NCBI GenBank assembly: GCA_964628775.1
Contig: CAZVOT010000001.1
Location: forward strand, 1-28,206
DNA: 28,206 bases
Source: Candidatus Woesearchaeota archaeon
GTDB lineage: Archaea > Nanobdellota > Nanobdellia > CAZVOT01
Direction of reading: 5' to 3'
Position numbers and translations under genes: made by a program. Position 1 is the first letter of the stretch. The number at the start of each line of letters is the position of its first letter. This document shows, piece after piece, positions 7,938 to 28,206 of the stretch. The notes under the pieces are model-generated. The model ran no database searches, was not told where the DNA came from, and saw only the letters and a list, made by a program, of their open reading frames with translations.

Positions 7938-9055
7938 AAGCAGATAAAATTGGAATACAAAAAATAAAAACTCTGGCAGGAACAGATACCGTAGAAGTTA
8001 AGTTATATTCTGGAAGTAATATAACAAAAGCAAGTTCGCCTGCTGGAACTTCTTTTGGAAAGTATGAGACTCCGGCTTTTCCAGGAGGAATTGAAAAATG
8101 TTTATTAGAATTCAACAAAATAAAAAATAAAATAATGGAATTTGATGTTTCTGAACAGAAAAATCTTGATGAATTTTTGAAAAAAAATTATGATAGAATT
8201 GGAGGGAGTGTATCTCTTTCTGTATCTATTGCTTTTTTTAGGATGAATGCTTTAGTTCAGAATAAAGAACTTTATGAGTCATTCGGAGGGAAAAAATTTT
8301 CAATGCCAATATTATTATCCAATATAATAGGAGGAGGAGTTCACTCCAAGGACGGAGCAGATATACAGGAATTTCTTGTTTTTGAGCCAAAAGCAAAAAG
8401 TTTTCAGGAGAGTTTTTTTAAAAATATGAGCGCTTACAAACTGATTGAAAAAAAATTACAATCAAAAATAAAAGGAAAAAATATTGAATTTGCTTATATT
8501 GTTGATATGAACACAGAGGAGATTTTAGATAATTTATCACAAATCTGTGATTTTTACGGACTAAAAATTGGACTTGATGTTGCCGCCAACTCGTTATTTG
8601 ACGGGAAGAATTATGTTTATAAAAAGGACAAGAAAGTGCTTTCTTTTGAAGAGCAGAGAATGTACTTAAATTCCTTGATTGATAAGTATAATATCCAGTA
8701 TATAGAGGATCCTTTAAATGAGGATGATTTTTCTGGTTTTGGCAAAATAAAATGCAGAATGGTTTGTGCTGATGACTTGACTGCAACAAATAGGTTTAGG
8801 CTTAAAAAAGCAGGAAAATATGTGAATTCTTCAATAGTAAAGCCCAATCAAATAGGAAATGTAAGCGATACAATTGCTTATGTTAAAGAGTGCAGAAAGA
8901 TGAAAATAACACCTGTTGTTTCCCACCGCTCGCAGGAAACTGATGATGATTTTATCGCACATTTGGCTGTCGGCTTTTCAATCCCTTTTGTTAAGATAGG
9001 ACTAAACAGAATTTCAAAATTAAACACATTGAGAGATATTGAGGAGAGATTATGA
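7934..9055 (+). CDS. eno: Enolase (short, divergent)
   Basis: GGGVHS, IQEF, GLDVAA, IEDP, ADDL, VKPNQIG, SHRSQET, VKIG. TTG start overlapping the upstream TGA. Confidence 0.9.
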   Translation: MKADKIGIQKIKTLAGTDTVEVKLYSGSNITKASSPAGTSFGKYETPAFPGGIEKCLLEFNKIKNKIMEFDVSEQKNLDEFLKKNYDRIGGSVSLSVSIAFFRMNALVQNKELYESFGGKKFSMPILLSNIIGGGVHSKDGADIQEFLVFEPKAKSFQESFFKNMSAYKLIEKKLQSKIKGKNIEFAYIVDMNTEEILDNLSQICDFYGLKIGLDVAANSLFDGKNYVYKKDKKVLSFEEQRMYLNSLIDKYNIQYIEDPLNEDDFSGFGKIKCRMVCADDLTATNRFRLKKAGKYVNSSIVKPNQIGNVSDTIAYVKECRKMKITPVVSHRSQETDDDFIAHLAVGFSIPFVKIGLNRISKLNTLRDIEERL

Positions 9056-10231
9056 GGAATTATTTTCTACCGGCTTTTTTTCACAGATTAATTCATGTTT
9101 TAGCAAATCATTTAATGTTTTAAATTGTTTTGAACAAAATTTGCATTTTCCCTCTCTTAATATAGCATCTAAATATACCATTCTAAAATAAAGAGAATTT
9201 ACCAAATCTTCTGAAAGTTTTTCTTCATCAATTTTTTTAAAAAGAGTATTAGAATTATTTTTTAATTTATTTTTTATTTTTAAAGAGGATATATCTATAT
9301 TAACTTTTTCAATCCTCTCTTTTAAAGTTGGATGAGATGAAAATAATGATGTTTTTTCTTTTTTTAATATTTCTTCTTTTATCTTATTAGTATCTTCTTT
9401 TTTATAATTTTCATAAATTAATTTGTATACATTTACACAACTTTTTTTTTCTTTTATAAGTTTAAAGATATCTTCACTTCCTTTTTTGTTAAAATAATAT
9501 GAATAAGCAGAGTAATTTAACAAAGCATTTGCAAATGTTTTTTTACCAGAAAATTTTGAAGATATATAATCCGCTCTATACTCAACTTGTCTGGAATAAA
9601 TTGAAGTAAAAATATTGAATATAAATAGATAACATCTTAAAAATAAAATTAAATATAAGTTAAGTAAAATATTTGCAGGATGCCGGGATTTTTTTATTGA
9701 ATTTTTTCCAAAATTGTATAAACTGACAAGAGATATATTTATTTTTGAAAAAATAGAACTAATAACTGTATCTTTTCCATAGAAATGTCCAAATTCATGG
9801 TATAATATAGATTCTAACTCTTTCTTTGAAATTGCTCTTAAAGTTGTGATACCCAAACCTAATATTTTTTTGTTAAAACCAGATACGTATATATCTGCAG
9901 TTGGAAGAATTATTACTTTGGATGGTATTTTTACATTTAAATCTCCGGAAATTTTTTTTATTATTTCAAATAGTTCCTCATTATCCTCTTCATTTATTTT
10001 TATACCTTTTTCACTGGATTTCAAAAAAAGAGAATATACAAGAGGAATCAAAAAAATTATAATGAGTATAAATCCTGTTTTTGAAAAAATAAAAATAATC
10101 TCTTTTCTTTCAGCGAAAACCCCCAAAAAATATAAAAATAAATACATTGAAAAAATAATCAGCAATGAAAAAATTAAACTAGAATAAATTCTTAATCTGG
10201 TATCTTTTGGAATTTTTATTTTTTTATTCAA
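9050..10231 (-). CDS. M48/HtpX-family membrane zinc metalloprotease with C-terminal Cys/His finger
   Basis: N-terminal TM helices, HEFGH (HExxH), EYRAD, SHPTLKERI; ends CKFC-x12-HELIC. Confidence 0.85.
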   Translation of the reverse strand: MNKKIKIPKDTRLRIYSSLIFSLLIIFSMYLFLYFLGVFAERKEIIFIFSKTGFILIIIFLIPLVYSLFLKSSEKGIKINEEDNEELFEIIKKISGDLNVKIPSKVIILPTADIYVSGFNKKILGLGITTLRAISKKELESILYHEFGHFYGKDTVISSIFSKINISLVSLYNFGKNSIKKSRHPANILLNLYLILFLRCYLFIFNIFTSIYSRQVEYRADYISSKFSGKKTFANALLNYSAYSYYFNKKGSEDIFKLIKEKKSCVNVYKLIYENYKKEDTNKIKEEILKKEKTSLFSSHPTLKERIEKVNIDISSLKIKNKLKNNSNTLFKKIDEEKLSEDLVNSLYFRMVYLDAILREGKCKFCSKQFKTLNDLLKHELICEKKPVENNSS

Positions 10232-10296
10232 TATAAAAGTTAATACTTTTAGATTTATAAAAATTTTTTAATTAAATTCTATCAATTAGGAATTGA

Positions 10297-10791
10297 TTAA
10301 TAAATTTCAGAAATCAGTTCTTTGGGCAGTATACTTGTAATTTTTGAAAGTTCTAAGAAAAGAGAAACTTCGCATGGATGGGTTAAATTGAATTCTCTTA
10401 TTGTTTCTCTCAAGGAATTTTCATTGTACTTGATAAAATGTATACTCTGTACATCAAGTTCTTTTTTCTTTTTGTCATTAAAAATTTTATTTATTTCATC
10501 TTTTGATAGATTCACTCTTATTCTTGCGTGAAGTTCCGGTTTTCTAACTTTCCAGGTTTTTGGATTCTCCCATTTATCCTGGCGCCACATAAATAATTTA
10601 TCATTTGAAAGGGCATTTACTTCAATTGAATCTATATCAAAATGTTCTTCTTCTAAAATTCCAAGTTCTTCAAAAAGTTCTCTTGACATTTCTTCAACTG
10701 GGTGAGTTCCAGCAAGTTCAATATTTCCTCCAAAAACATGATAAGCACTGGGATAGAATGGCGTGTTATTTCCTCTTTTTGAAAGAGGCAT
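10297..10791 (-). pseudogene. N-terminally truncated duplicate of the Nudix gene at 13937-14899
   Basis: 164-aa ORF nearly identical to the C-terminal half of that protein; its ATG overlaps the PMK 3' end. Confidence 0.6.
10297..10791. repeat. Direct repeat copy 1 (offset 3640 bp from copy 2)
   Basis: 10335-10746 is identical to 13975-14386 (412 bp by manual comparison); both margins are diverged but alignable. Confidence 0.95.
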
Positions 10792-11905
10792 CTTCTTTTA
10801 TTCCTTCTTTGTCAATTTCAGCAGAAATAACATAAATCCCTGATTTTCTCCATTCAGATTCTATTTTATTCTTAATTTCATCAGAAAAACAAAGAGCAAT
10901 ACCGCAATCTCCACCACCTGCTCCTGATAATTTTCCAGCTCCTTTGTTTTTATCTGCAATTTCACAGAGTAATTTTAATTTTTCAGTTTCAATTTTTATA
11001 TTTGATTTTTTTCCAAGTAAAGATAATAATTTTTCATTTTCTTTTATTAATTCTAATATTTTGTTTTCATTTTCAGTTTTTAATGAAAAGATAAGTTGTT
11101 CTGTTAAAATTTTGATTTTATTGATTATTTCAAAATATTGGGATTCTCTTTCTGATTTAAATTCTTTCATTTTTTTTATCATTTCTGATGTTGATGCAGA
11201 ACTTCCTGTAAAACCAATTGATAATTTAAGATTTTTTGGAATTGCAGCATTTTTAACATAAAAACCATTCCACTTGGAATCAACAATGTCCTTTATACTT
11301 CTTTTTTGTTCAAATTGACTTAAAAACCAGTCCTGATAAAAAGTCCTGTAAACTAAAAATCCACCGAATACAGAAGCAGCAATATCAAAGCAGGAGCCGG
11401 ATTTTCCCTGAGCAAAATAATGAGCTATTGCTGAAAGTTTATATATCAGTTCTTTTGATTCTTTTTTTTCAATATCAAAATTATTGAATTTCAATATAGA
11501 TGAGATTATTGAAACGACAGATGCAGCAGAAGAACCAAAGCCGATTTTTTTTGATTCACTGTTGATATTTATTCTTGTTTCTTTTCCAGATGTTTCGAGT
11601 TTAAAGGGGTTTATTTTTTTGAGATAGGCATAAACTGTTTCAACTGCGGAGTTTGTGAATTTCAAAATCTCTTTTTGTTTATCTGTTAACTCCTTTAAAT
11701 AAACTAATTTTCCTTCTATAATTTCAGCAGGTATATTTCTTATGTTAAAATCTAAAAGGGAGAGGTATATGTTATTATCTTTTGATTCTGAAACTGATGA
11801 ATATATTCTTTTATTTACAGCACAGACAACTGCTAAATTATCTTTTTCTAAAATACTCCACTCTCCTGAAATCATAAGTTTTCCTGGGGCTGAAACTTTT
11901 ATCAT
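10766..11905 (-). CDS. mvaK2: Phosphomevalonate kinase (ERG8-like GHMP type, Gram-positive/mvaK2 style)
   Basis: SAPGKLMISGEW, KKIGFGSSAA, HYFAQGKSGSCFDIAASVFGG, GFTGSSAST, KLSGAGGGDCGIAL. Confidence 0.88.
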   Translation of the reverse strand: MIKVSAPGKLMISGEWSILEKDNLAVVCAVNKRIYSSVSESKDNNIYLSLLDFNIRNIPAEIIEGKLVYLKELTDKQKEILKFTNSAVETVYAYLKKINPFKLETSGKETRININSESKKIGFGSSAASVVSIISSILKFNNFDIEKKESKELIYKLSAIAHYFAQGKSGSCFDIAASVFGGFLVYRTFYQDWFLSQFEQKRSIKDIVDSKWNGFYVKNAAIPKNLKLSIGFTGSSASTSEMIKKMKEFKSERESQYFEIINKIKILTEQLIFSLKTENENKILELIKENEKLLSLLGKKSNIKIETEKLKLLCEIADKNKGAGKLSGAGGGDCGIALCFSDEIKNKIESEWRKSGIYVISAEIDKEGIKEDASFKKRK

Positions 11906-11911
11906 TTTTAG

Positions 11912-12919
11912 TCAAAATAGGTGTTCTTCAGTTAAATATGCGGATTTTCCGCATTTTAATTCATAAATTTCTTTAATTCCTTTTATTTTCCTGCATTCTG
12001 AAATTATTTTTTTTGCATCTTTTTCAAGACATATAATCTTGAGCTGTGGTCCAGCATCCATTGTAAAATAACATTCAATTCCTTTCTTGTTTATTTCATC
12101 AATTTTATAAATAATCTCTTTTGTTTTGTCATTTATGTAAATAATTGGAGGATTTGTAGTCAGCATTACTGCGTGCATTTTGAGGCAGTTTTCCTGCGCT
12201 GTTTTTCCAAGAAGAGAAAAATCTTTTTCAATTATCGCTTTTCTTGTTTTCTTTAAATCATCTTCAATTGAAGAAAGCCAGGAACTTTTGTAAATAGGAC
12301 TTGTTTTTACACTCTGAGACATACCTGCTCTTGATTTTATTTTTTTTTCTTTTTTTGAAGTTACACAAGCAATTAATCTGAGTTCTTTCCAATGATTCTC
12401 ATCTCTTATTGTTTCTGCATAAGAGTCCTTTCCGTCTTTTCTTTTTCCTTTTTTCCATTCAACAAAACCGCTTGGAATTGAACGAGAAGCAGAACCAGAA
12501 CCCCTTCTTGCTAAAATTGAAAGTTCTTTTTTATCAAGTCCTAAATTTAAAGCAGAATTTACTGCAAGAGAAAGAGCTGCAAAACCTGATGCTGATGATG
12601 CAAGTCCTGCTGATGTAGGGAAGTTGTTTTCTGTTTTTATTTTGACATTTTGTTTTATTTTAAATTCTTCCCGGATTATATTTAAAAATTTTTCAATGTA
12701 TTCTTTATAATCCTCTGAATTTTTATTTAATTTGTTATTATTTAGAATAAATATATCCTCTTTATATTTATTATCAAATTCAACAGTTGTTTTAGTAGTC
12801 ATTTTATCCAGAGTCATACTTATACTGCTGTTATACGGAAGAATAAGTTTGTCATCTCTTTTTCCCCAGTATTTAACAAGAGCAATATTTGAATTTGCTG
12901 CAGCCGAGGCTTTCATCAT
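11912..12919 (-). CDS. mvaD: Diphosphomevalonate decarboxylase
   Basis: SNIALVKYWGK, LPYNSSISMTL, NNFPTSAGLASSASG, ARRGSGSASRS, SRAGM, FTMDAGP. Start probably ATG 12919 or 12916. Confidence 0.9.
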   Translation of the reverse strand: MMKASAAANSNIALVKYWGKRDDKLILPYNSSISMTLDKMTTKTTVEFDNKYKEDIFILNNNKLNKNSEDYKEYIEKFLNIIREEFKIKQNVKIKTENNFPTSAGLASSASGFAALSLAVNSALNLGLDKKELSILARRGSGSASRSIPSGFVEWKKGKRKDGKDSYAETIRDENHWKELRLIACVTSKKEKKIKSRAGMSQSVKTSPIYKSSWLSSIEDDLKKTRKAIIEKDFSLLGKTAQENCLKMHAVMLTTNPPIIYINDKTKEIIYKIDEINKKGIECYFTMDAGPQLKIICLEKDAKKIISECRKIKGIKEIYELKCGKSAYLTEEHLF

Positions 12920-12989
12920 TAACTTAATAAAAAACACATTATTAAAATTTTTGAAAAGATATTTAATTTCTTGTTTTTTATAGTTATCT

Positions 12990-13940
12990 ATGTTTGAATC
13001 AAAATCAGCGGGAAATCTTTTTCTTTTTGGGGAACATGCAGTTGTTTATGGAAAACCTGCGGTAATAACCTCTGTTGATTTAAGAACAAAATGTTCTCTT
13101 GAAAAAAAAGACAGCGGGATTTCAATAAACTCAAAGGAACTTGGAACTGCAGAGGAAATAAATGGAGAAAAAACAGGAAATCCTGATTTATTCATTCTTC
13201 TTGATTTTTGCAGGGAACTTCTTTTTAAGTTTGAAATGACTTCTGGACTTAATATTTATATTGAATCAGAAATACCTGTTGCAAGCGGTATGAGTTCTTC
13301 AACAGCAGTTTTATGTTCAATTTTATCTGCTTTTTCAAAAGAATTTAACCTTAGTATAGAAAAAAAAGATTATTACAATTTAATCATAGAATCACAGAAA
13401 AAAATTCACGGAGGCAAGGCATCAGGTTCAGAAATAATAAGCAGTTCAATCGGCGGTTTTAATTATTTGTCTTTTAAAGATGGAAAATTAAATATTGTTG
13501 AACTTGATAAACTGCCTATTGATGTTGTAATAGGTGATACAGGAATTTCTATGAAAACTTCAACAACTGTTGGAGGATATATACCGAATTTAATGAAAGA
13601 AAAACCAGAGTTTGTTAAAAATGCTTTTGATAGAATTGAGGAAATATGCAACAGAGGAGTAGAGGCGATAAAAAGAAAAGATTTTGCTTTAATCGGACAA
13701 TTAATAAATGAAAACCAGAATGTTCTTTTCTCACTTGGACTTTCGCATCCAAAAATAGACTTGGCTGTAAAAAATGCTCTTTTGGCTGGTGCTTACGGCG
13801 CCAAACTCTCCGGCAAAGGACAAGGAGGGATTATGTTTGCAATAACAGATAAAGAACACAAAGAAAAAGTTGCTTTGGCAATAGAAGATTCAGGACTTAA
13901 AGTAATAAAAACAAAAATCGGAACAGAAGGATTAATCTAA
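12990..13940 (+). CDS. mvk: Mevalonate kinase-like GHMP kinase (atypical motifs)
   Basis: LFGEHAVVYGKPA, SEIPVASGMSSS, HGGKASG, GAKLSGKGQGG; next to mvaD and mvaK2. Confidence 0.75.
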   Translation: MFESKSAGNLFLFGEHAVVYGKPAVITSVDLRTKCSLEKKDSGISINSKELGTAEEINGEKTGNPDLFILLDFCRELLFKFEMTSGLNIYIESEIPVASGMSSSTAVLCSILSAFSKEFNLSIEKKDYYNLIIESQKKIHGGKASGSEIISSSIGGFNYLSFKDGKLNIVELDKLPIDVVIGDTGISMKTSTTVGGYIPNLMKEKPEFVKNAFDRIEEICNRGVEAIKRKDFALIGQLINENQNVLFSLGLSHPKIDLAVKNALLAGAYGAKLSGKGQGGIMFAITDKEHKEKVALAIEDSGLKVIKTKIGTEGLI

Positions 13941-14431
13941 TAAATTTCAGAAAGAAGTTCTTCTGGTTTTATATTTGTAATTTTTGAAAGTTCTAAGAAA
14001 AGAGAAACTTCGCATGGATGGGTTAAATTGAATTCTCTTATTGTTTCTCTCAAGGAATTTTCATTGTACTTGATAAAATGTATACTCTGTACATCAAGTT
14101 CTTTTTTCTTTTTGTCATTAAAAATTTTATTTATTTCATCTTTTGATAGATTCACTCTTATTCTTGCGTGAAGTTCCGGTTTTCTAACTTTCCAGGTTTT
14201 TGGATTCTCCCATTTATCCTGGCGCCACATAAATAATTTATCATTTGAAAGGGCATTTACTTCAATTGAATCTATATCAAAATGTTCTTCTTCTAAAATT
14301 CCAAGTTCTTCAAAAAGTTCTCTTGACATTTCTTCAACTGGGTGAGTTCCAGCAAGTTCAATATTTCCTCCAAAAACATGATAAGCTCCTGGGTAGAATG
14401 GGGTGTTATTTCCTCTTTTTGAAAGAGTTAT
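13937..14431. repeat. Direct repeat copy 2
   Basis: See copy 1; lies within the 3' half of the full-length Nudix gene. Confidence 0.95.
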
Positions 14432-14899
14432 ATAATCATCGCTTGAAATTACAAGAACATCAACTGCCAAGGGAGCTGATGGAACTTTATTGTCTTTGAA
14501 ATAATAAAAATAAGCAGGATTTTTTACTGCAAGAACTTCCGGGAAAGTTATTTGTGATACATCTAAGGTAAGTTCACTTTTTTTGAACATTTTTAGAGCA
14601 GTATAATTATAATTTTCTAATCTTGAAACAAAGCCCGGCCATATAAGCAGGTTTTCTTTATGATAAAGAGAATTATATTCTGTTTTTTTGTTGTATTTTT
14701 TATAAGGCTCAAATCTAAATTCTTCTCTTGGTGAATTTTGTTTTGTTATCCTTTCTTCTAAAATCATGTTCCAATTAGCATTTATTAAAAATTCAAGTCC
14801 TTCGGGCTTTTCTTTTGGTTCTACTACATTAACTTTGATATTATCTTTATATAAAGAAAAAATTTCATTTATTTCCCAGTCTTTTGTTGTGCAAATCAT
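13937..14899 (-). CDS. Nudix hydrolase, NUDT22-like architecture
   Basis: APLAVDVLVISSDDYITLSKRG...YPGAYHVFGGNIE...RELFEELGI (variant Nudix box) after an N-terminal domain. Likely start ATG 14899. Confidence 0.7.
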   Translation of the reverse strand: MICTTKDWEINEIFSLYKDNIKVNVVEPKEKPEGLEFLINANWNMILEERITKQNSPREEFRFEPYKKYNKKTEYNSLYHKENLLIWPGFVSRLENYNYTALKMFKKSELTLDVSQITFPEVLAVKNPAYFYYFKDNKVPSAPLAVDVLVISSDDYITLSKRGNNTPFYPGAYHVFGGNIELAGTHPVEEMSRELFEELGILEEEHFDIDSIEVNALSNDKLFMWRQDKWENPKTWKVRKPELHARIRVNLSKDEINKIFNDKKKKELDVQSIHFIKYNENSLRETIREFNLTHPCEVSLFLELSKITNIKPEELLSEIY

Positions 14900-14973
14900 A
14901 GTTTTAAAGTAAATTAAAAGATTTTTAAAACTACCTAAAAACAATAGTTTCTTTAATATGATTAGTGAAAAAA

Positions 14974-14981
14974 TTTAAAAT
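14974..14981 (+). promoter_or_regulatory. Putative TATA box of gpsA
   Basis: TTTAAAAT ending 22 nt before ATG 15004. Confidence 0.4.
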
Positions 14982-15003
14982 ATCTGTGTAATTTTAAAAT
15001 AAG

Positions 15004-15972
15004 ATGAAAATAACTGTTCTTGGTGCTGGTAATTGGGGGACTGCTTTTGCCAGAATTCTCTCTAAAAACAAACACGAGATTGTTATATGGACAATTGAAG
15101 AGGATGTTTTTCGCGATATAAATGAAAATCATGTTAATACAAAATATCTAAAAGGTGTAAATCTGCCAGAATCAATAAGAGCAGAAAGGGATTTAGGCAG
15201 TGCTGTTTCAAAAGCAGATTTTATTGTTATAGCTGTTCCTTCGCACATAGTTTCTATTGTTTCCAAACAGCTTGCAGAATTTTACAAAAATCAGCCCATT
15301 ATTGACCTTGCCAAAGGATTTGAACCGAATATCTTTCTCAGGATGAGCGAAACAATAAAAAAAGAGATTCCAAGTGCTGATGTTATCGCTCTTTCAGGCC
15401 CATCTATTGCAAATGAAGTTGCTTTAGATATTCCAACATCAGTTTCAATTGCTGGAGATAATAAAGAAACCTTAAAATTAGCAAAAGAGATTCTTGAATC
15501 AGAGAATTTCCATGTTTTTCCGAATAATGATATTATTGGCGTTGAAATGGGCGGAATTTTGAAGAATGTTATTGCTATTGCAGGAGGCATGTCTGACGGA
15601 CTTGGATTTGGCTGTAACACCAAGTCTGCCATTATCACAAATGGACTTAAAGAAATGAAAAGAATTGGTGTTTCTCTTGGAGCAAAAGAAGAAACTTTTT
15701 TTGAACTTTCCGGGATAGGAGATTTGATTGTAACTTCTATTTCAGAGGATGGAAGAAACAGGACTCTTGGCGAGAAACTAGGCAGGGGTATGACTCTTGA
15801 AGAGATAAAAAAAGAATCGCTTCAGGTTATGGAAGGAGTCAATGCCTGTTCATTGGCAATAAAGATTGCAGATGAGAAGAAAATTTCTGTTCCTATTACA
15901 AGGGAAATCTATGATGTTCTTTTTAATAATAAAAAGCCAATATCTGCTGTTAGAAAAATTCTTTCTTTATGA
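15004..15972 (+). CDS. gpsA: NAD(P)H-dependent glycerol-3-phosphate dehydrogenase (bacterial type)
   Basis: VLGAGNWGTA, NTKYL, AVPSH, LAKG.E, LSGPS.A.EV, DIIGVEMGGILKNVIAIAGG, GIGDLIVT, RNRTLG, EGV. Confidence 0.93.
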   Translation: MKITVLGAGNWGTAFARILSKNKHEIVIWTIEEDVFRDINENHVNTKYLKGVNLPESIRAERDLGSAVSKADFIVIAVPSHIVSIVSKQLAEFYKNQPIIDLAKGFEPNIFLRMSETIKKEIPSADVIALSGPSIANEVALDIPTSVSIAGDNKETLKLAKEILESENFHVFPNNDIIGVEMGGILKNVIAIAGGMSDGLGFGCNTKSAIITNGLKEMKRIGVSLGAKEETFFELSGIGDLIVTSISEDGRNRTLGEKLGRGMTLEEIKKESLQVMEGVNACSLAIKIADEKKISVPITREIYDVLFNNKKPISAVRKILSL

Positions 15973-16022
15973 ATTTATAAAATTCAATAAGATTTATAAT
16001 ATTATGTTCTTATCTGTTTGAT

Positions 16023-16658
16023 GTGGGGGGAGGATATAGAATAAATGATTTTAATTTAATAGAACAGGCAGTTGCAGAGTCAGTTATACCTTATTTTAAA
16101 AATTTTTTAATGGAAAAAATAAAAATCCTTCAAGTGTTCAAACATTATGAAGATAAAAAAAATAATTTAATTTCAGTGATTGAAAATTTAAAGACAAATA
16201 AATCTTACATCTCTGCAAGGATAAATAATTATCTTCACGAGAATAATAAAAAAATTACTGAAATTGGAAATTTAGAAATTAAAGATATATCCTCAGATAT
16301 AATAACTGATGCAATTTTAATAAATAGACTTCCAAAAGCACTTGAAGAATATTTTACTTTGGAGGAGAATTCTCTTTCTCAGATAGGACTTTCTATTGAT
16401 GATTTGGATTATATACAGGATATTTTAGATAACCAGGATATATTAATTATTTCTAAAAAAGCAGAGGACTATAGAAGAACAACAGACAAAACTTTTTTTA
16501 ATTTAGATGTAAAGGATATTGAGAATATGTCTTTATCTGTGATAATCTATGCTCTTTCAGAGTATGTAGAAAACAAAAGCTCGAATGATATAATAACTAT
16601 AAAAAAACCAACAGCACAAGATTTCAAAAGACAAATAATGAATTCAATAAAAAAATAA
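16023..16658 (+). CDS. Hypothetical protein (start uncertain)
   Basis: Long open frame in AT-rich DNA, convergent on ppsA; no motif recognised. Confidence 0.55.
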   Translation: MGGGYRINDFNLIEQAVAESVIPYFKNFLMEKIKILQVFKHYEDKKNNLISVIENLKTNKSYISARINNYLHENNKKITEIGNLEIKDISSDIITDAILINRLPKALEEYFTLEENSLSQIGLSIDDLDYIQDILDNQDILIISKKAEDYRRTTDKTFFNLDVKDIENMSLSVIIYALSEYVENKSSNDIITIKKPTAQDFKRQIMNSIKK

Positions 16659-16661
16659 AAA

Positions 16662-19600
16662 TTAAGTTTTATTCAGTTCGTCAATTATTCTTTTTTTTTC
16701 TTCTTCATTCAAGTCTGTTTTTTCCAGAAGAATTTTTCTTTCAATTGAAGAAACAAGGACTCTTGTTTTATTTACAACATCAGGATTGACACTCATACTG
16801 TCTATGCCTTCTTTCACTAAAAATTCACAGAAATCCGGATAGACACTGGGAGCCTGCCCGCATATTGAAACCTTGACTCCATTTTCGTGTGCTCTTCTGA
16901 TTAAATTTACTATTGCTCTTTTTACTGCTTCATCTCTTTCATCAAAGTAGCCCATTTTTGCAAGAAGCGCTGAATCTCTGTCACATCCAAGAATTAACTG
17001 GGTCAAGTCATTGCTGCCAATTGAAAAACCGTCGCAGAGTTTTGAAAATTCATTTGCCATAAAGATAATGCTCGGCACTTCTGCCATAAGCCACAGTTCA
17101 AATGAATCCTCCCCTCTTTTTAGTCCTTCGCTTTCCAAGATTGAGATTATTCTTTTTACTTCCCATAAATTCCTGACAAATGGAAGCATTACCTTTACAT
17201 TTTTATGTCCGTAGATATCTCTTACTTTTTTTATTGCTCTGCATTCTAGTCTAAAAGAGGATTCAAATTCTGGAGAAATGTATCTTGAGCATCCTCTCCA
17301 GCCAATCATCGGGTTTTCTTCTTTTGGTTCAAATTTTTCTCCGCCTTTTAAACTTCTATATTCATTTGTCTTGAAATCAGATAATCTAACTACAACCAGC
17401 TTTCCGTCCATTGCTTTTGCTGTTTTTGCAATTCCTTCTGCTAATTTGTCTATATATTCACTGCCTCTTCCTTGTTCTAACATTGCATTTGGATGTTCTG
17501 CTATGTAAGATGCTATAATAAATTCTATTCTCATAAGTCCTATTCCGTCGCACCATAATTTGGAATATTCATCTGCTTTTTCTGGAACTCCTAGATTCAT
17601 GTATATTTTTGTTGATGTAATTGGTTTTGATGTTTCTCCATTTAGGAATTCTTCTTTTTTCTCTTGTTTTATTTCAATCTTTCCGCCGTAGACTATTCCT
17701 CTTACTGCATCAAGAGTTACTTCCTGATTATGTTTTATTACTTTTGTTGCAGTTGAGGTTCCCACTATGCATGGGATTCCAAGTTCTCTAGATACAATCG
17801 CTGCATGGCAGTTTGAAACAAGAACAGGAGAGTATTTTTTTGTAAATACAACATAGTTATGCTGTATTTCATTGTCTGCTTCAACTTCAATATTGTAAAC
17901 ATCAATAACTCCAAGTTCTTTTACTTTTTTTGTTCTGTACATTCTTAAATCAGAATTAATAACTTTTGAAAGTTCTTCCTTTGTTTTTCCATCAAGCATA
18001 GGAAGAATCTTCTGCTTTATTTTTTCAGAATCAATCAGTAGATTGCTGTTTACATAGGGTTTTACTTTTCCTTTGTAATTTACAGATTCAATTATATCTC
18101 TTAGAACCTGTTTTGCTGAAAATAATTTTGTTCCATTGATTTTTTTATGTGTTTCTCCTTTTATTCTTTTTGAATAAAATAGAATATCCTCTATCTTTTC
18201 CATTATCTGGATATGATGTATATTCCTATTTACAGTAACTTCCGGAACAATGCCTAATTTTAAGCAGGCAAGAACAACTCCTTGGATTACTTTTTCTTTC
18301 TGTATATAGATATGCAGTCTATTTTCATAAAATGAGCCGTCGCCGTCAATAAGTCCTGCAAGGAAATTTAATGCTGAGCTTTCTGATATTTCAAGCAGCC
18401 ATGAATCAAGATTCTCATAAATTTCCATAATTTTTTGTGCAGGAACAAGTTTAAAACAGACAAAATCTGTTGCACATCCACAGATTGTTTTTCCTCTTAA
18501 AGTAGATGAACTTGATTTATCTCTTTCAAAAGTCATTTCTTCACTGAATAAATCGCTGTAATATTCTTTTACTATTTTGATAAACTCTGCTTTTTGTATA
18601 TCCTGTTTTTGAGTAAAAGTTACTCTTCCTATTCTGGCATTTCCTGATTTATATTTATCTACCCTTATGTTCCCATCAGATAAAAGAGCACCCATTAGAT
18701 ATCCTAATTTATCATTTTTAATGCTTGCTAAATTTATTGGAAGTTTTTCAACAATACAGAGATGTTCATTATCTTCAAGAATACTTTTTATTTCTTTTTT
18801 TATCAATTCTCTTCCTTTGAATGTAAATACTTTGTGATTCTCTGTTATATCTAAAGTATTATGTTCTATTCTATTTGATTGAGAAGTAGATATACTAATT
18901 GCACTGCTTTTTCTTTTAAATGAATTTATGATTCTTTTCCAGACAGGTTTTAAATTTTTAGAATCAAATGAGAAGATAAATAACTCCTCATTAGAATTTA
19001 TTTTTTCATAAACTTCGCTTATTTTTAAAAATCCTTTGTTTGTCAGGATATTTGTATGTTCTCCAAAACAAGTCATTCCACCTTCATCAGTTATTATTCC
19101 TGATGCTTTTAGCATTATTGGAACCCAGTCAGGGTCAGTCATTCTTGTAACTAAAATATCCCCTTTTTCTATTTTATCAGCTTGTTCAGGAGATAAAATC
19201 AATGATGCTTTTCCTGATGCAATTCCTGGACTTGCTCCAAGTCCTTTTATTATAATATTGCCTTCAGGTTCTTTTCTTTCCTCTGTTTCTTCTTTTCCAA
19301 AGAAAGTAATAGGTCTTGACTGGACAATATATAGATGTCCTTCTTCAATGCACCATTCAATATCCTGCGGAACTTTGTAATAATTTTCTATTTTTTTTAC
19401 TATTTTTGCAAGTTCTATTATCTGGGAATCATCAAGAACCTGGGTTTTCTTTTTGTTTTCAGGAAGTTCTACTTTTATCATACCCATATCATCAGGATTT
19501 CTTATATACTTCCACTGCTGTTCGCCGATGCTTTTATTTTTTATTTCAAATGTTTCTTTATTAACAATATAATTGTTTGGAGTTATTTCTCCTCCTACAA

Positions 19601-20327
19601 CTGCATCACCCTGCCCCCAGCCAGCTTCAATTATTATTTCGTTTTTATTTCCTGTTGAAGGATGAATTGAAAATGCTGTTCCAGCTTTTTCAGAGTCAAT
19701 CTGTTTCTGGACAATTGCACATAAAAGAACTTTTTCATGTTCAAATCCGTTTTTTTCCCTGTAGAATATTGCTCTTGCAGTATAAAGTGAAGCCCAGCAT
19801 TCTTTTATTGCTCTGATTAATTGTTCTTCTCCTTTTACAAATAATATTGTTGCCTGCTGTCCTGCAAAACTAGCATTAGGCAAATCTTCTGCTGTTGCTG
19901 AAGAACGTACTACCACATAAGGAATGTCTCTTCCTGCTGAAATTAATTTCATTGCATTATCGCTTAGATTTTCGTATCTCTCACTTCCAGCTTTCATTTT
20001 TTTGTATGCTTCCAATATTTTTGATAAAATATGTTCTGGAATACTTTTTGACATTACTATTTCTCTGATTTTTTCTGATGCCAACTGGATTGCTTTTGTG
20101 TCATCAACATCAATTGATTTTAATATTGAGAAAATGCTTTCTTTAATTCCTGTTTCTTCCATAAACTCCTTGAAAATGTAAGCATTTATTGCAAATCCCA
20201 TGGGTACAGGAAAACCTGCTTTTGTCATTTCACCTAAGTTTGCAGCTTTTCCGCCGACAATTGGAATATCCTCTTTTCCAATTTCCTTAAACCATAAGAT
20301 AGATTTTTCTTTTTTGTCAATTTCCAT
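16662..20327 (-). CDS. ppsA: Phosphoenolpyruvate synthase (PEP synthetase), intein-containing; about 801 aa after splicing
   Basis: VGGKAANLGEM, VRSSATAEDLPNASFAGQ, DIEW, VQSRPIT, GGMT-CHAAIVSRELG (phospho-His), GLMRIEF, PMIGWRG, SIGSNDLTQ, ICGQAPS. Confidence 0.95.
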   Translation of the reverse strand: MEIDKKEKSILWFKEIGKEDIPIVGGKAANLGEMTKAGFPVPMGFAINAYIFKEFMEETGIKESIFSILKSIDVDDTKAIQLASEKIREIVMSKSIPEHILSKILEAYKKMKAGSERYENLSDNAMKLISAGRDIPYVVVRSSATAEDLPNASFAGQQATILFVKGEEQLIRAIKECWASLYTARAIFYREKNGFEHEKVLLCAIVQKQIDSEKAGTAFSIHPSTGNKNEIIIEAGWGQGDAVVGGEITPNNYIVNKETFEIKNKSIGEQQWKYIRNPDDMGMIKVELPENKKKTQVLDDSQIIELAKIVKKIENYYKVPQDIEWCIEEGHLYIVQSRPITFFGKEETEERKEPEGNIIIKGLGASPGIASGKASLILSPEQADKIEKGDILVTRMTDPDWVPIMLKASGIITDEGGMTCFGEHTNILTNKGFLKISEVYEKINSNEELFIFSFDSKNLKPVWKRIINSFKRKSSAISISTSQSNRIEHNTLDITENHKVFTFKGRELIKKEIKSILEDNEHLCIVEKLPINLASIKNDKLGYLMGALLSDGNIRVDKYKSGNARIGRVTFTQKQDIQKAEFIKIVKEYYSDLFSEEMTFERDKSSSSTLRGKTICGCATDFVCFKLVPAQKIMEIYENLDSWLLEISESSALNFLAGLIDGDGSFYENRLHIYIQKEKVIQGVVLACLKLGIVPEVTVNRNIHHIQIMEKIEDILFYSKRIKGETHKKINGTKLFSAKQVLRDIIESVNYKGKVKPYVNSNLLIDSEKIKQKILPMLDGKTKEELSKVINSDLRMYRTKKVKELGVIDVYNIEVEADNEIQHNYVVFTKKYSPVLVSNCHAAIVSRELGIPCIVGTSTATKVIKHNQEVTLDAVRGIVYGGKIEIKQEKKEEFLNGETSKPITSTKIYMNLGVPEKADEYSKLWCDGIGLMRIEFIIASYIAEHPNAMLEQGRGSEYIDKLAEGIAKTAKAMDGKLVVVRLSDFKTNEYRSLKGGEKFEPKEENPMIGWRGCSRYISPEFESSFRLECRAIKKVRDIYGHKNVKVMLPFVRNLWEVKRIISILESEGLKRGEDSFELWLMAEVPSIIFMANEFSKLCDGFSIGSNDLTQLILGCDRDSALLAKMGYFDERDEAVKRAIVNLIRRAHENGVKVSICGQAPSVYPDFCEFLVKEGIDSMSVNPDVVNKTRVLVSSIERKILLEKTDLNEEEKKRIIDELNKT
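17811..19070 (-). mobile_element. Intein with LAGLIDADG homing endonuclease (420 aa, residues 420-839 of PpsA)
   Basis: Interrupts GGMT|CHAA. Starts Cys (CFGEHT), block B TENHKV, LAGLIDADG-type blocks YLMGALLSDG and FLAGLIDGDG, block F VYNIEV..HNYV, ends Ser-Asn before Cys+1. Confidence 0.93.
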
Positions 20328-20420
20328 TTTGAAAATTAATTATCCTTCCTTTTAAAATTTTTATGAATTGGAATACTCTCTTTCATATTTGAAAACTTTA
20401 ATAAAATTTAAAAGAAAAAT

Positions 20421-20951
20421 TTACTGTTTTGGATTGTTTATTACTTTAATATGTCCTGTTATTGGCAGTTTTCCTGTTGCTCTTTTCATTGCTGTTTTAG
20501 CAAAGGGAATATTTGATTTATCGCAGTAAATTGAGATTACTTTTGTTCCTGTTTTTACTCTTGCTGCTCTTCCGTAAGGTTTTCCAAAAGCGTGAGTCAT
20601 ACCTTTTTGGAATCTGTCTGCACCCGCTCCTGCTGCAATTGGGTTTTCTCTCATTATGTGGTGTGGAAATGGATGAATAACTAACCTGAAATTATTTTTT
20701 CCTGCTTTTAATTCTATAAACCTAACTGAAGCTATACGAGCTGATTCAAGGCAGTTATGTCTTAGATTAATGTCTTTTTCAGAGATTAATACAACTTGAG
20801 AATCAAATTTCTTGCTTTTTTCTCCAAGAACAAATCTTACAATCTTGCTTCCCGGTATACCTACAATAAAAGCCTTGCTTTTTCTTTTTGAAGTTCTTGT
20901 ATAAGGTATTTTTAAATGCCTGTAACAAGTTCCGTTTCTTAACTTGGACAT
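20421..20951 (-). CDS. rpl10e: 50S ribosomal protein L10e/uL16
   Basis: CYR...PYTR, IRHN-like LRHNCLESAR, PFPHHIMREN, GADRFQKGM..AFGKP.GRAARV. Confidence 0.95.
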   Translation of the reverse strand: MSKLRNGTCYRHLKIPYTRTSKRKSKAFIVGIPGSKIVRFVLGEKSKKFDSQVVLISEKDINLRHNCLESARIASVRFIELKAGKNNFRLVIHPFPHHIMRENPIAAGAGADRFQKGMTHAFGKPYGRAARVKTGTKVISIYCDKSNIPFAKTAMKRATGKLPITGHIKVINNPKQ

Positions 20952-22780: not shown

Positions 22781-23470
22781 TTATGTATATTTTTGGCTAA
22801 ATATAAATATTGCGATTACCAAAGGAGTGATAACAAAAAAGGATATAAGCAGATTTGCGAATCTAAGAAGGAATAAAAGGGTAGTAGTTGAGGAAATTAC
22901 CATTAACCAGATAGTCCAATCATAAGAAAGTATGTGCGAGCCGTCAAGAGGAGGCAGAGGAATTAGACTGAAGAAAGCAATTGTTAAGTTTATTATGACC
23001 ATATCCAGCACTATTTCAGGATTTAACAAACCCTCAAACATTTTGAATAAAACTGCAAGTCCTATGTTGAATAACGGACCTGTAAGAGCAATTCTGCCTT
23101 TTTCATTGAAGCTCAAGTCAACATATTTTTTTCCAAGACGGCTGAAATATGAGGAGGACATTGCTGAAAATCCAGAAAGAGCGAATAAAATTTTTCCATT
23201 GAAAAGCAAAGTTGCAAAAAGCGAGAAAGCAAGTCCTTGAGGCCAGATTATGTATTTATGCCTGCATTCATATTTATCTGCAGTATACTTATGTCCAATC
23301 ATTTTTATTAAAAATGAAAAACCTACAAGGAGTATTGTTAAAAAAAAGTTGGAAATACCTGCTTCTATTGAATCCCACTTGTTGAATGAGAATATAAATC
23401 CAAGAACAAAAACTGAAAGAAGGATGTCTCTTATTTCGCTTGGTTCCATTTCCAGAAATTTAAAGTCCAT
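22781..23470 (-). CDS. Site-2 protease (M50)-like membrane protein lacking HExxH
   Basis: IALTGPLFN and SLIPLPPLDG are present, but the zinc motif reads KMIGH. Confidence 0.7.
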   Translation of the reverse strand: MDFKFLEMEPSEIRDILLSVFVLGFIFSFNKWDSIEAGISNFFLTILLVGFSFLIKMIGHKYTADKYECRHKYIIWPQGLAFSLFATLLFNGKILFALSGFSAMSSSYFSRLGKKYVDLSFNEKGRIALTGPLFNIGLAVLFKMFEGLLNPEIVLDMVIINLTIAFFSLIPLPPLDGSHILSYDWTIWLMVISSTTTLLFLLRFANLLISFFVITPLVIAIFIFSQKYT

Positions 23471-24352: not shown

Positions 24353-24895
24353 TCAACTAAAAAGAGAAGTCAATGCCTGAAAGCCGTCTGTTCCTGGCAG
24401 AGGAAGAAGATTGAAAATCATCAGCCATAAATTTACCTGTTTTGTTATGAATAATGCCTCAAATAAGTCTGATTCAATGTCTTTTTTATACTTTAAATAC
24501 AAAGAACTTCCAATAAACATTAAAAAATTTACAAGAGGGCCTGCAATTGAAATTAAGAAATGATTTATTTTTGAATAATTGCTAAACTGTATTGAAACAT
24601 ACGCAGGGATAAAAATTATAGGGAAACCTATTGTTTTTGCCATTATACCCAAAAAAAGCCCGAAATAATTTGCATGATAAACTGCGATATTTCCTGTTGC
24701 AATAGCAGCAACTTTATGTCCGATTTCGTGGAATATGACTGCAGGACTTACAATCATTGCTGACTTCAAAAATCTCTTTTTTACATCCTCTATTCCAAAA
24801 TAATAATTTTTTCCAACAATTATACCCATTGCCAAGTATCCTATTGCAAGAACAGTAATTATCATTTCAATTATTTCGGTTATTGAAAAAATCAT
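24353..24895 (-). CDS. Site-2 protease (M50) family intramembrane metalloprotease, intact motifs
   Basis: HEIGH, SIAGPLVN, NLLPLPGTDG. Confidence 0.85.
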   Translation of the reverse strand: MIFSITEIIEMIITVLAIGYLAMGIIVGKNYYFGIEDVKKRFLKSAMIVSPAVIFHEIGHKVAAIATGNIAVYHANYFGLFLGIMAKTIGFPIIFIPAYVSIQFSNYSKINHFLISIAGPLVNFLMFIGSSLYLKYKKDIESDLFEALFITKQVNLWLMIFNLLPLPGTDGFQALTSLFS

Positions 24896-28079: not shown

Positions 28080-28206
28080 AGTTAAAAATCTTTTTGAAAT
28101 GGATGAGAGATTTTTAAAAATCAAAATTTAGGTTTGTGAAGTATTTTGATCAGTTAAAAATCTTTTTGAAATGGATGAGAGATTTTTAAAAATCAAAATT
28201 TAGGTT
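28080..28206. repeat. 55-bp direct repeat with 72-bp period, running off the window end
   Basis: 28080-28134 equals 28152-28206; non-coding in all six frames across the unit; contains the palindrome GATTTTTAAAAATC. Confidence 0.9.

Follow-up and report, generated by a model that had tools for sequence, protein, structure and literature searches.

A probable segmental duplication of part of a Nudix gene, with likely sequence exchange between the copies, around the lower mevalonate genes of a DPANN-like archaeon

The three lower mevalonate genes of an uncultured, low-GC, DPANN-like archaeon from groundwater lie between two direct repeats that each correspond to a Nudix gene's 3′ half. The locus is part of contig CAZVOT010000001.1 (Candidatus Woesearchaeota archaeon, assembly GCA_964628775.1), of which positions 1 to 28,206 were analyzed; this whole stretch of 28,206 nucleotides is called the window. 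The arrangement is probably a genuine segmental duplication, and its two copies would have exchanged sequence afterwards by gene conversion. Considered as a whole, it is an ordinary segmental duplication with concerted evolution, and the idea that it serves as a switch is unproven. It adds a new instance to a well-known type of structure and is of modest interest as such.

A position-by-position comparison showed that the copies are direct repeats with an offset of 3640. Copy A (10297..10787, minus strand), delimited by offset alignment, is a 491-bp truncated 3′ fragment of the Nudix gene, and copy B (13937..14427, minus strand) is the corresponding 491 bp that form the 3′ half of the intact gene. 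Between them they share a core of 412 bp with zero mismatches in this assembly (10335..10746 in copy A, 13975-14386 in copy B). The left margin of copy A (10297..10334) differs from 13937-13974 at 9 of 38 positions (10297, 10314, 10315, 10323, 10324, 10327, 10328, 10329, and 10334), and the right margin (10747..10787) differs at 5 of 41 (10747, 10749, 10750, 10753, and 10762). To the left, homology extends as far as the stop codon of the Nudix frame (copy A, TAA; copy B, TAG); to the right, it breaks off at 10787/10788. No other long repeat occurs within the 28-kb window.

The changes in the left margin are mainly non-synonymous (S/N, L/K, K/E, I/L). In the right margin three of the four changed codons are synonymous (ACG/ACC, TAT/TAC, CCC/CCA). 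An earlier, preliminary description of this DNA had given the same offset, the same 412-bp core and the same numbers of margin mismatches, all of which were reproduced base by base, and the synonymous changes that it named (ACC/ACG, TAC/TAT, CCA/CCC) were recovered as listed. Its reading of the margins as old divergence is uncertain: the five right-margin differences are clustered in a stretch of 16 bp and vary among samples, and a single patch event may account for them instead.

The two copies enclose exactly the trio that had been described. Phosphomevalonate kinase (PMK; 10766..11905, minus strand) matches TIGR01220 with 253 bits against a cut-off of 165.7; diphosphomevalonate decarboxylase (MVD; 11912..12916, minus strand) matches TIGR01240 with 327.1 against 171.35, as well as the Pfam families MVD-like_N and MDD_C; and mevalonate kinase (MVK; 12990..13940, plus strand) matches TIGR00549 with 175.7 bits against 163.05. 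Each of the three exceeds its NCBIfam equivalog cut-off, and together they are a bona fide lower mevalonate set. MVK is convergent with the full-length Nudix gene (13937..14899, minus strand, 320 amino acids, ATG at 14899), and the stops of the two genes overlap by 4 nt. The left unique flank of copy A, separated from it by a 65-bp spacer, is an M48-family metallopeptidase gene (9050..10231, minus strand; Pfam PF01435, E 9e-17). The right unique flank is the gene for a bacterial-type NAD(P)H glycerol-3-phosphate dehydrogenase, GpsA (15004..15972, plus strand; Pfam PF01210 and PF07479).

All 14 differences between the copies fall in the outer 79 of the 491 bp (p = 7.8e-12 if differences were evenly spread). 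Their state in other samples was read entirely from assembled contigs at about 3-10x: MEGAHIT contigs (L001, L002, and L029), contigs from the Joint Genome Institute (JGI; L003 and L004), and Logan k=31 contigs of samples (X1-X5 and X7), the Logan runs dating from 2017. In the window and in L004, copy A has an A-like right margin; in L002, L005, L029, X2, X4, and X5, this margin is B-like at all five positions, though it still runs into PMK. The left margin of copy A is A-like in all M48-anchored contigs. Within copy B, L003 and part of X1 have the A-like state at position 14402.

The repeat also varies much more than its surroundings. In seven contigs we counted at least 20 differences over 2,664 nt inside the repeat and 9 over 14,700 nt outside it, that is, 0.75% versus 0.06%, a ratio of about 12-fold (Fisher p = 1e-10). 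Most of the core variants alter the amino acid sequence that the intact gene encodes (RE>KK, S>N, V>A, H>R). The variants 10395T/10397T and 10513T were found in A-anchored and B-anchored contigs alike. Elsewhere, the copy A haplotype carries 10395T, 10397T, 10445T, and 10513T (L004, X2, X7), and the copy B haplotype carries 14015C, 14019C, and 14091G (L001, L003, X1). Judged from copy-anchored contigs, the copies in other samples seem to differ at 3-6 core sites. The perfect core that had been described for the window therefore belongs to this assembly or strain and not to the population.

Recent gene conversion, or a crossover between paralogues, had been proposed from the identical core with its diverged margins. 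Gene conversion between the copies is now supported by the restriction of the differences to the edges, by the mosaic margins among samples, by the variants common to both copies, and by the raised polymorphism of the repeat, and it is the best explanation that sequence comparison offers for an identical core with diverged edges. The two copies would swap sequence by homologous recombination, which would homogenize their interior. Because a minimal homology is needed on both sides of a conversion tract, the outer ~40 bp at each end would seldom be covered by one and would keep their differences. Copy A, if free of constraint, may act as a reservoir of variants that passes changes to the intact gene and receives others back; a reservoir of this kind would explain why the repeat varies so much more than the genome around it.

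Concerted evolution by gene conversion is known in prokaryotes, for example, in tufA/tufB of Salmonella and in rRNA operons. In those systems, as here, the interior is kept identical through RecA/RadA-type recombination, and the edges and the sequence beyond them diverge. Unlike tufA/tufB, one partner is here 5′-truncated and probably dead, the homology covers 491 bp only, and the direct repeats stand 3.6 kb apart and enclose essential-looking genes in a DPANN-like archaeon. The locus would thus be a case in which a gene fragment left by a rearrangement keeps trading sequence with its intact parent, and supplies it with variants, in an uncultured archaeon with a small genome. It also illustrates that a "perfect repeat" in a metagenome contig needs to be read against population data.

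The 3′ end of PMK bears on how copy A arose. The final 22 nt of the PMK open reading frame (ORF), which comprise the codons for SFKKRK and the stop, lie within copy A and are read out of the Nudix frame. Native PMK sequence runs as far as codon 372/373, and alignments with relatives of PMK extend no further than residues 369-376. Since the PMK tail is read from copy A, a single breakpoint appears to have fused the Nudix interior with the 3′ terminus of PMK. One rearrangement may have made this joint and left copy A behind as a remnant; PMK would from then on have ended in six out-of-frame Nudix codons, and copy B would have stayed with the intact gene.

Within the 320-residue protein, copy A begins at residue 157, inside strand E156-162 of the structural model described below; the N-terminal domain is missing from it, and so is the strand that opens the Nudix domain (E145-151 of the model). 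Its ORF (10297-10791, minus strand, 164 amino acids) takes its start ATG from the PMK side of the junction, and it has an S at the conserved G of the YPG motif of the family. We regard copy A as a probable non-functional remnant and not as a gene. An ORF of equal length (164 amino acids) downstream of PMK in L027, a locus of the candidate phyla radiation (CPR, Patescibacteria), proved to be unrelated. The intact gene itself is altered in L003, where a 1-nt deletion in a T run at window position 14578 frameshifts the full-length Nudix gene, recorded there as the 111-amino-acid P0002; the deletion may be an error of sequencing, or L003 may come from a strain whose intact copy is broken as well.

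A mobile genetic element was considered as the source of the repeats and rejected. No recombinase domain, integrase, or transposase was found when the window ORFs of at least 80 amino acids were scanned with Pfam, the tRNA search found no tRNA in the window, and terminal inverted repeats are missing. The repeated unit is a 491-bp coding sequence, as against the short target duplication of mobile elements. A compositional island was likewise rejected, as the trio equals its flanks in GC, in GC at third codon positions (GC3), and in trinucleotide profile. Synteny was compared in relatives, the nearest of which reach ~60% amino acid identity at most, and neither the ancestral state nor an empty site was found among them. 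The Nudix protein had no word-level relatives in that comparison; GpsA and Nudix homologues occur in non-syntenic archaeal contexts, and the relatives of MVD and MVK show only the MVK/MVD/PMK cluster.

An assembly chimera of strains had been named as the main alternative, and it is largely excluded. All four junctions between repeat and unique sequence recur in assemblies of other aquifer samples from the European Nucleotide Archive (ENA), JGI, and Logan. The M48-copy A junction is present in L004, L031, X2, X3, and X4; copy A-PMK in L002, L004, L005, L029, X2, X4, and X5; MVK-copy B in L001, L002, L029, X1, X2, and X4; and the junction of copy B with the Nudix 5′ half in L001, L003, X3, and X5. 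Both flanks are linked through each copy: L004 (JGI, 1067 nt; 9775-10841) runs from M48 through the whole of copy A into PMK, and L001 (MEGAHIT, 8 kb; 12913-20926) runs from MVK through the whole of copy B into the Nudix 5′ half and on as far as the gene for ribosomal protein L10e. L003, in the window configuration, includes copy B and GpsA. As every junction is seen in independent assemblies, a chimera that invented false junctions is excluded, and as the joint of the Nudix interior with the PMK 3′ end is found in at least seven independent contigs, the segment must exist twice. The core contig of X1 has a depth of 9.7, compared with ~5-6 in the flanks; this factor of about two is the expectation for two copies.

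Two apparent irregularities in the contigs were set aside. The Nudix 5′ half is missing from X2, which might have been a sign of another structure; the depth of X2 is only ~3-5x, and X3, X4, and X5 cover this half, so the gap was treated as sampling noise. Several contigs stop at 12.80-12.91 kb, where a structural variant was suspected. X3 spans 12767-13434 with zero differences, and the contig ends therefore reflect a coverage gap in an AT-rich spacer.

The preliminary description also suggested a switchable isoprenoid cassette. Its geometrical part stands: the repeats permit homologous excision or tandem amplification of the 3640-bp unit, with no transposase among the scanned ORFs, and the same homology would permit unequal crossing-over (tandem duplication) or pop-out of the unit. 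In two further samples, at low coverage, L002 (ERZ27293393, 2276 nt) and L029 (ERZ27293412, 787 nt), both from MEGAHIT assemblies with k=141, lead from the PMK 3′ end through the repeat to the MVK 3′ end, which is the joint predicted for a circle or a tandem array. The identical stretch (412-453 bp) is longer than k=141 and coverage is ~3-10x, so a contig that crosses it may arise when competing edges are missing, and these joints could be graph mis-joins. Short-read contigs that cross a repeat cannot alone prove circles or tandem arrays, and the PMK-repeat-MVK contigs are ambiguous.

As for the switch, the proposal remains unproven. The length-weighted ratio of trio depth to flank depth was 1.46 in X1, 0.98 in X2, 0.90 in X3, and 1.34 in X4, which is roughly flat and without an excess of twofold or more. 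No contig with an empty site (M48-repeat-Nudix 5′ half) was found in the JGI metagenome scan or the protein cluster, and no such allele was seen in the relatives found. A single integrated form predominates in the sampled populations, and selection probably acts against loss of the trio.

Direct repeats are known to allow tandem amplification and deletion, as in bacterial heteroresistance and in the amplification of lac in E. coli (PMC12892994, PMC1428787). The present locus resembles these in having a few hundred bp of direct homology around a gene block and a novel end-to-start joint (L002, L029). It is unlike them in that the depth of the trio nowhere reaches twofold, short contigs of low coverage are the only ones to show the joint, a gene fragment stands in place of an insertion sequence (IS) or rrn copy, and no selection regime is known.

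Three other explanations can be compared with the segmental duplication. The most skeptical is that the structure is partly an assembly artefact: either the junctions are mispaired, and the true state is M48-Nudix-GpsA plus a separate molecule, or the 412-bp identity was imposed by consensus. We consider this very improbable. It gains from the fact that the repeat is longer than reads and k-mers, that the short contigs spanning it disagree on the configuration (L002 and L029 versus L004 and L001), that copy-anchored haplotypes differ in other samples, and that the core haplotype of the window is nowhere else seen complete. However, it leaves the recurrent joint of the Nudix interior with PMK unexplained, and the alternative pairing needs a 3.6-kb circle that has no replication genes and is yet at chromosomal depth; moreover, the 37,471-nt source contig, L004, and L001 are mutually consistent, and the window has an N count of 0 and no scaffold gap. 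Somewhat less remote, and still unlikely in our judgement, is an active recombination cassette, in which RadA-type recombination would make tandem or circular 3640-bp units in part of the population and would yield copy-number variation of the lower mevalonate pathway. The joints in L002 and L029 agree with it, as do the raised depth ratios of X1 and X4, and the fourth path, from M48 through the repeat to the Nudix 5′ half, was never met among the crossing contigs, as a tandem array predicts. But one of the four paths is expected to be missing in ~24% of cases with five low-coverage crossing contigs, chance crossings are possible for a repeat that exceeds both k=141 and read length, the ratios in X2 and X3 show no increase, the empty site was not met in the JGI metagenome scan or protein cluster, and a circle would have no replication function. 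We give the same low credence to the existence of real tandem or circular forms, and a lower one still to a role as a switch. The fuller scenario, in which a captured CPR-like lower-mevalonate cassette is still amplified or looped out in aquifer populations and the joints of L002 and L029 are real, seems to us improbable. If it were true, an archaeon that possibly depends on a host for its lipids would have an isoprenoid module whose copy number varies without a transposase, and real joints would offer an easy way to follow how isoprenoid precursor genes vary in copy number in DPANN archaea.

The third explanation, of which we are doubtful though less so than of the other two, is that the repeats are the scar of an integration. 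The trio would have come from another archaeon, on a circularized fragment together with the 3′ half of a donor Nudix gene, and a Campbell-type crossover would have inserted it into the resident Nudix gene; the cassette-side margins would then be those of the donor and the outer margins those of the recipient, which is compatible with later conversion. The geometry is exactly that of a single-crossover product: the homology segment stands on either side of the insert as a direct repeat, once in an intact gene and once in a 5′-truncated copy. Unlike such a product, the locus has no vector, replicon, integrase, or att site, and its margins are diverged. Homology stops at the stop codon, as expected where the contexts of an orthologous gene diverge, the predominance of synonymous changes in the right margin is as between functional alleles, and the trio looks laterally mobile, MVK and MVD being closest to CPR. 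On the other hand, alleles diverged by 12-24% would leave copies that differ along their whole length, so conversion is still needed, and recombination is inefficient at this divergence. The right margin, being polymorphic, may have been patched recently; the trio does not differ from its flanks in composition; no relative was found with an "M48-Nudix-GpsA" empty site or a donor-type "MVK-Nudix" adjacency; and an identical structure would result if 491 bp had been inserted next to PMK in situ by a templated event. The segmental duplication followed by gene conversion has points against it as well. The pairing of junctions across a core of more than 412 bp relies on assemblers that are able to mis-join, L002 and L029 show the other pairing on one side, and no other assembly contains both copies. 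The 412-bp identity could be a consensus artefact of a collapsed repeat, and the variants common to both copies could be due in part to mis-phasing by the assembler. With no relative closer than ~60% amino acid identity, the duplication cannot be dated or polarized.

The name "Nudix" for the duplicated gene is based on three elements: a sub-threshold Pfam match, the REUXEEXGU motif, and a fold match. The match to PF00293 (NUDIX) has 17.2 bits and lies under the cut-off of 21.1. The gene that contains copy B has an intact RELFEELGI motif (REUXEEXGU), with a spacing upstream of it that is one residue longer than in MutT (Nudix box GX5EX7REUXEEXGU). An AlphaFold2 model of the 320-amino-acid protein, built on 15 distant homologues, had a predicted local distance difference test score (pLDDT) of 89.1 and a predicted template modeling score (pTM) of 0.88. 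The top six Foldseek matches in the PDB were all human NUDT22, over the full length (E 5e-14 to 1e-12, template modeling (TM) scores 0.62-0.75), the best of them with E 5e-14 and TM 0.66/0.75. After NUDT22 came single-domain Nudix proteins with E ~4e-6 or weaker. The product is thus predicted to be a NUDT22-like two-domain Nudix protein, with an N-terminal beta domain and a C-terminal Nudix domain.

Human NUDT22 is a UDP-glucose/UDP-galactose hydrolase (PMC10101856; PDB 5lf9). It has in common with the predicted archaeal protein the two domains, a match over the full length with TM 0.66-0.75, and the C-terminal position of the Nudix domain, whereas sequence identity is only ~10% and the likeness of the archaeal protein is known from its predicted structure. 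The family of ~300-amino-acid homologues comprises 55 matches at E < 1e-3 and has no Pfam or NCBIfam model. In another archaeon (L023/L024/L025, 6001-7401), a NUDT22-like homologue of 309 amino acids, P0003, is directly followed by a separate canonical Nudix gene of 145 amino acids. P0003 sits among ribosomal-protein and NOG1 genes and not among mevalonate genes. We also considered whether the Nudix gene could be a type 1 isopentenyl diphosphate (IPP) isomerase tied to the trio. No IDI model was matched (NCBIfam, E < 0.01), and the idea of an IPP-isomerase partner was dropped because the fold is NUDT22-like and P0003 lies in a non-mevalonate context.

The closest relatives of the trio point partly to another domain. 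MVK is 56-62% identical to MVKs of CPR bacteria and at most 49% identical to named DPANN MVKs; two of the CPR MVK contigs have bacterial neighbors (S20p, DNA polymerase III delta, RecG, and sigma-70). The best matches of MVD, at 58-59%, are CPR-labelled. PMK is not clearly closer to CPR, with 44-45% identity there versus 49% to an Aenigmatarchaeota homologue. Among the loci of relatives that were compared (L026, L027, L028, and L007), L027 is an MVK>MVD>PMK operon in CPR. From these identities, the trio looks laterally exchanged on a longer time scale and is a candidate for inter-domain transfer. The classical mevalonate pathway in CPR, and PMK and MVD derived from horizontal gene transfer in some DPANN, have been described (Hoshino and Gaucher 2018, PMC6107057). 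As in the classical MVK-MVD-PMK clusters of Gram-positive cocci and CPR, the genes pass the equivalog cut-offs and the adjacency of MVD and PMK is kept. Unlike in those clusters, MVK points in the opposite direction to MVD-PMK, codons from the repeat have replaced the tail of PMK, and the host contig is archaeal, with Alba, L10e, and Nob1-type PIN genes. The domain scan of the window added DUF63 and an XPD-type helicase to these archaeal markers; the GC content is 30%, and sequence matches come from aquifer and groundwater metagenomes.

The bacterial-type GpsA adjoins isoprenoid genes in an archaeal contig, an observation that bears on the DPANN "lipid divide" (PMC8204110). Its nearest relative on a long contig (48%, L030) likewise stands in an archaeal ribosomal-protein context. 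A CPR-like trio next to a bacterial-type GpsA is a data point on the exchange of lipid-pathway genes between CPR and DPANN.

Other features of the window lie beyond GpsA. Positions 16662-20327 encode a phosphoenolpyruvate (PEP)-utilizing enzyme of 1221 amino acids (PPDK_N, PEP-utilizers, PEP-utilizers_C) that is split by an intein with a LAGLIDADG homing-endonuclease domain, the intein call being based on the Pfam annotation that L001 has for this gene, which is identical there. Two ORFs, at 22781-23470 and 24353-24895, each match part of the Peptidase_M50 model, with a gene for a YdjM-like membrane protein between them; they may be a split or duplicated site-2 protease. At the extreme end of the window, an exact direct repeat of 55 nt (28080-28134 and 28152-28206) has a period of 72 nt, and further copies may lie beyond the edge, where the stretch is cut. 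Each 55-nt copy holds a 10-bp inverted repeat, TTAAAAATCT...AGATTTTTAA.

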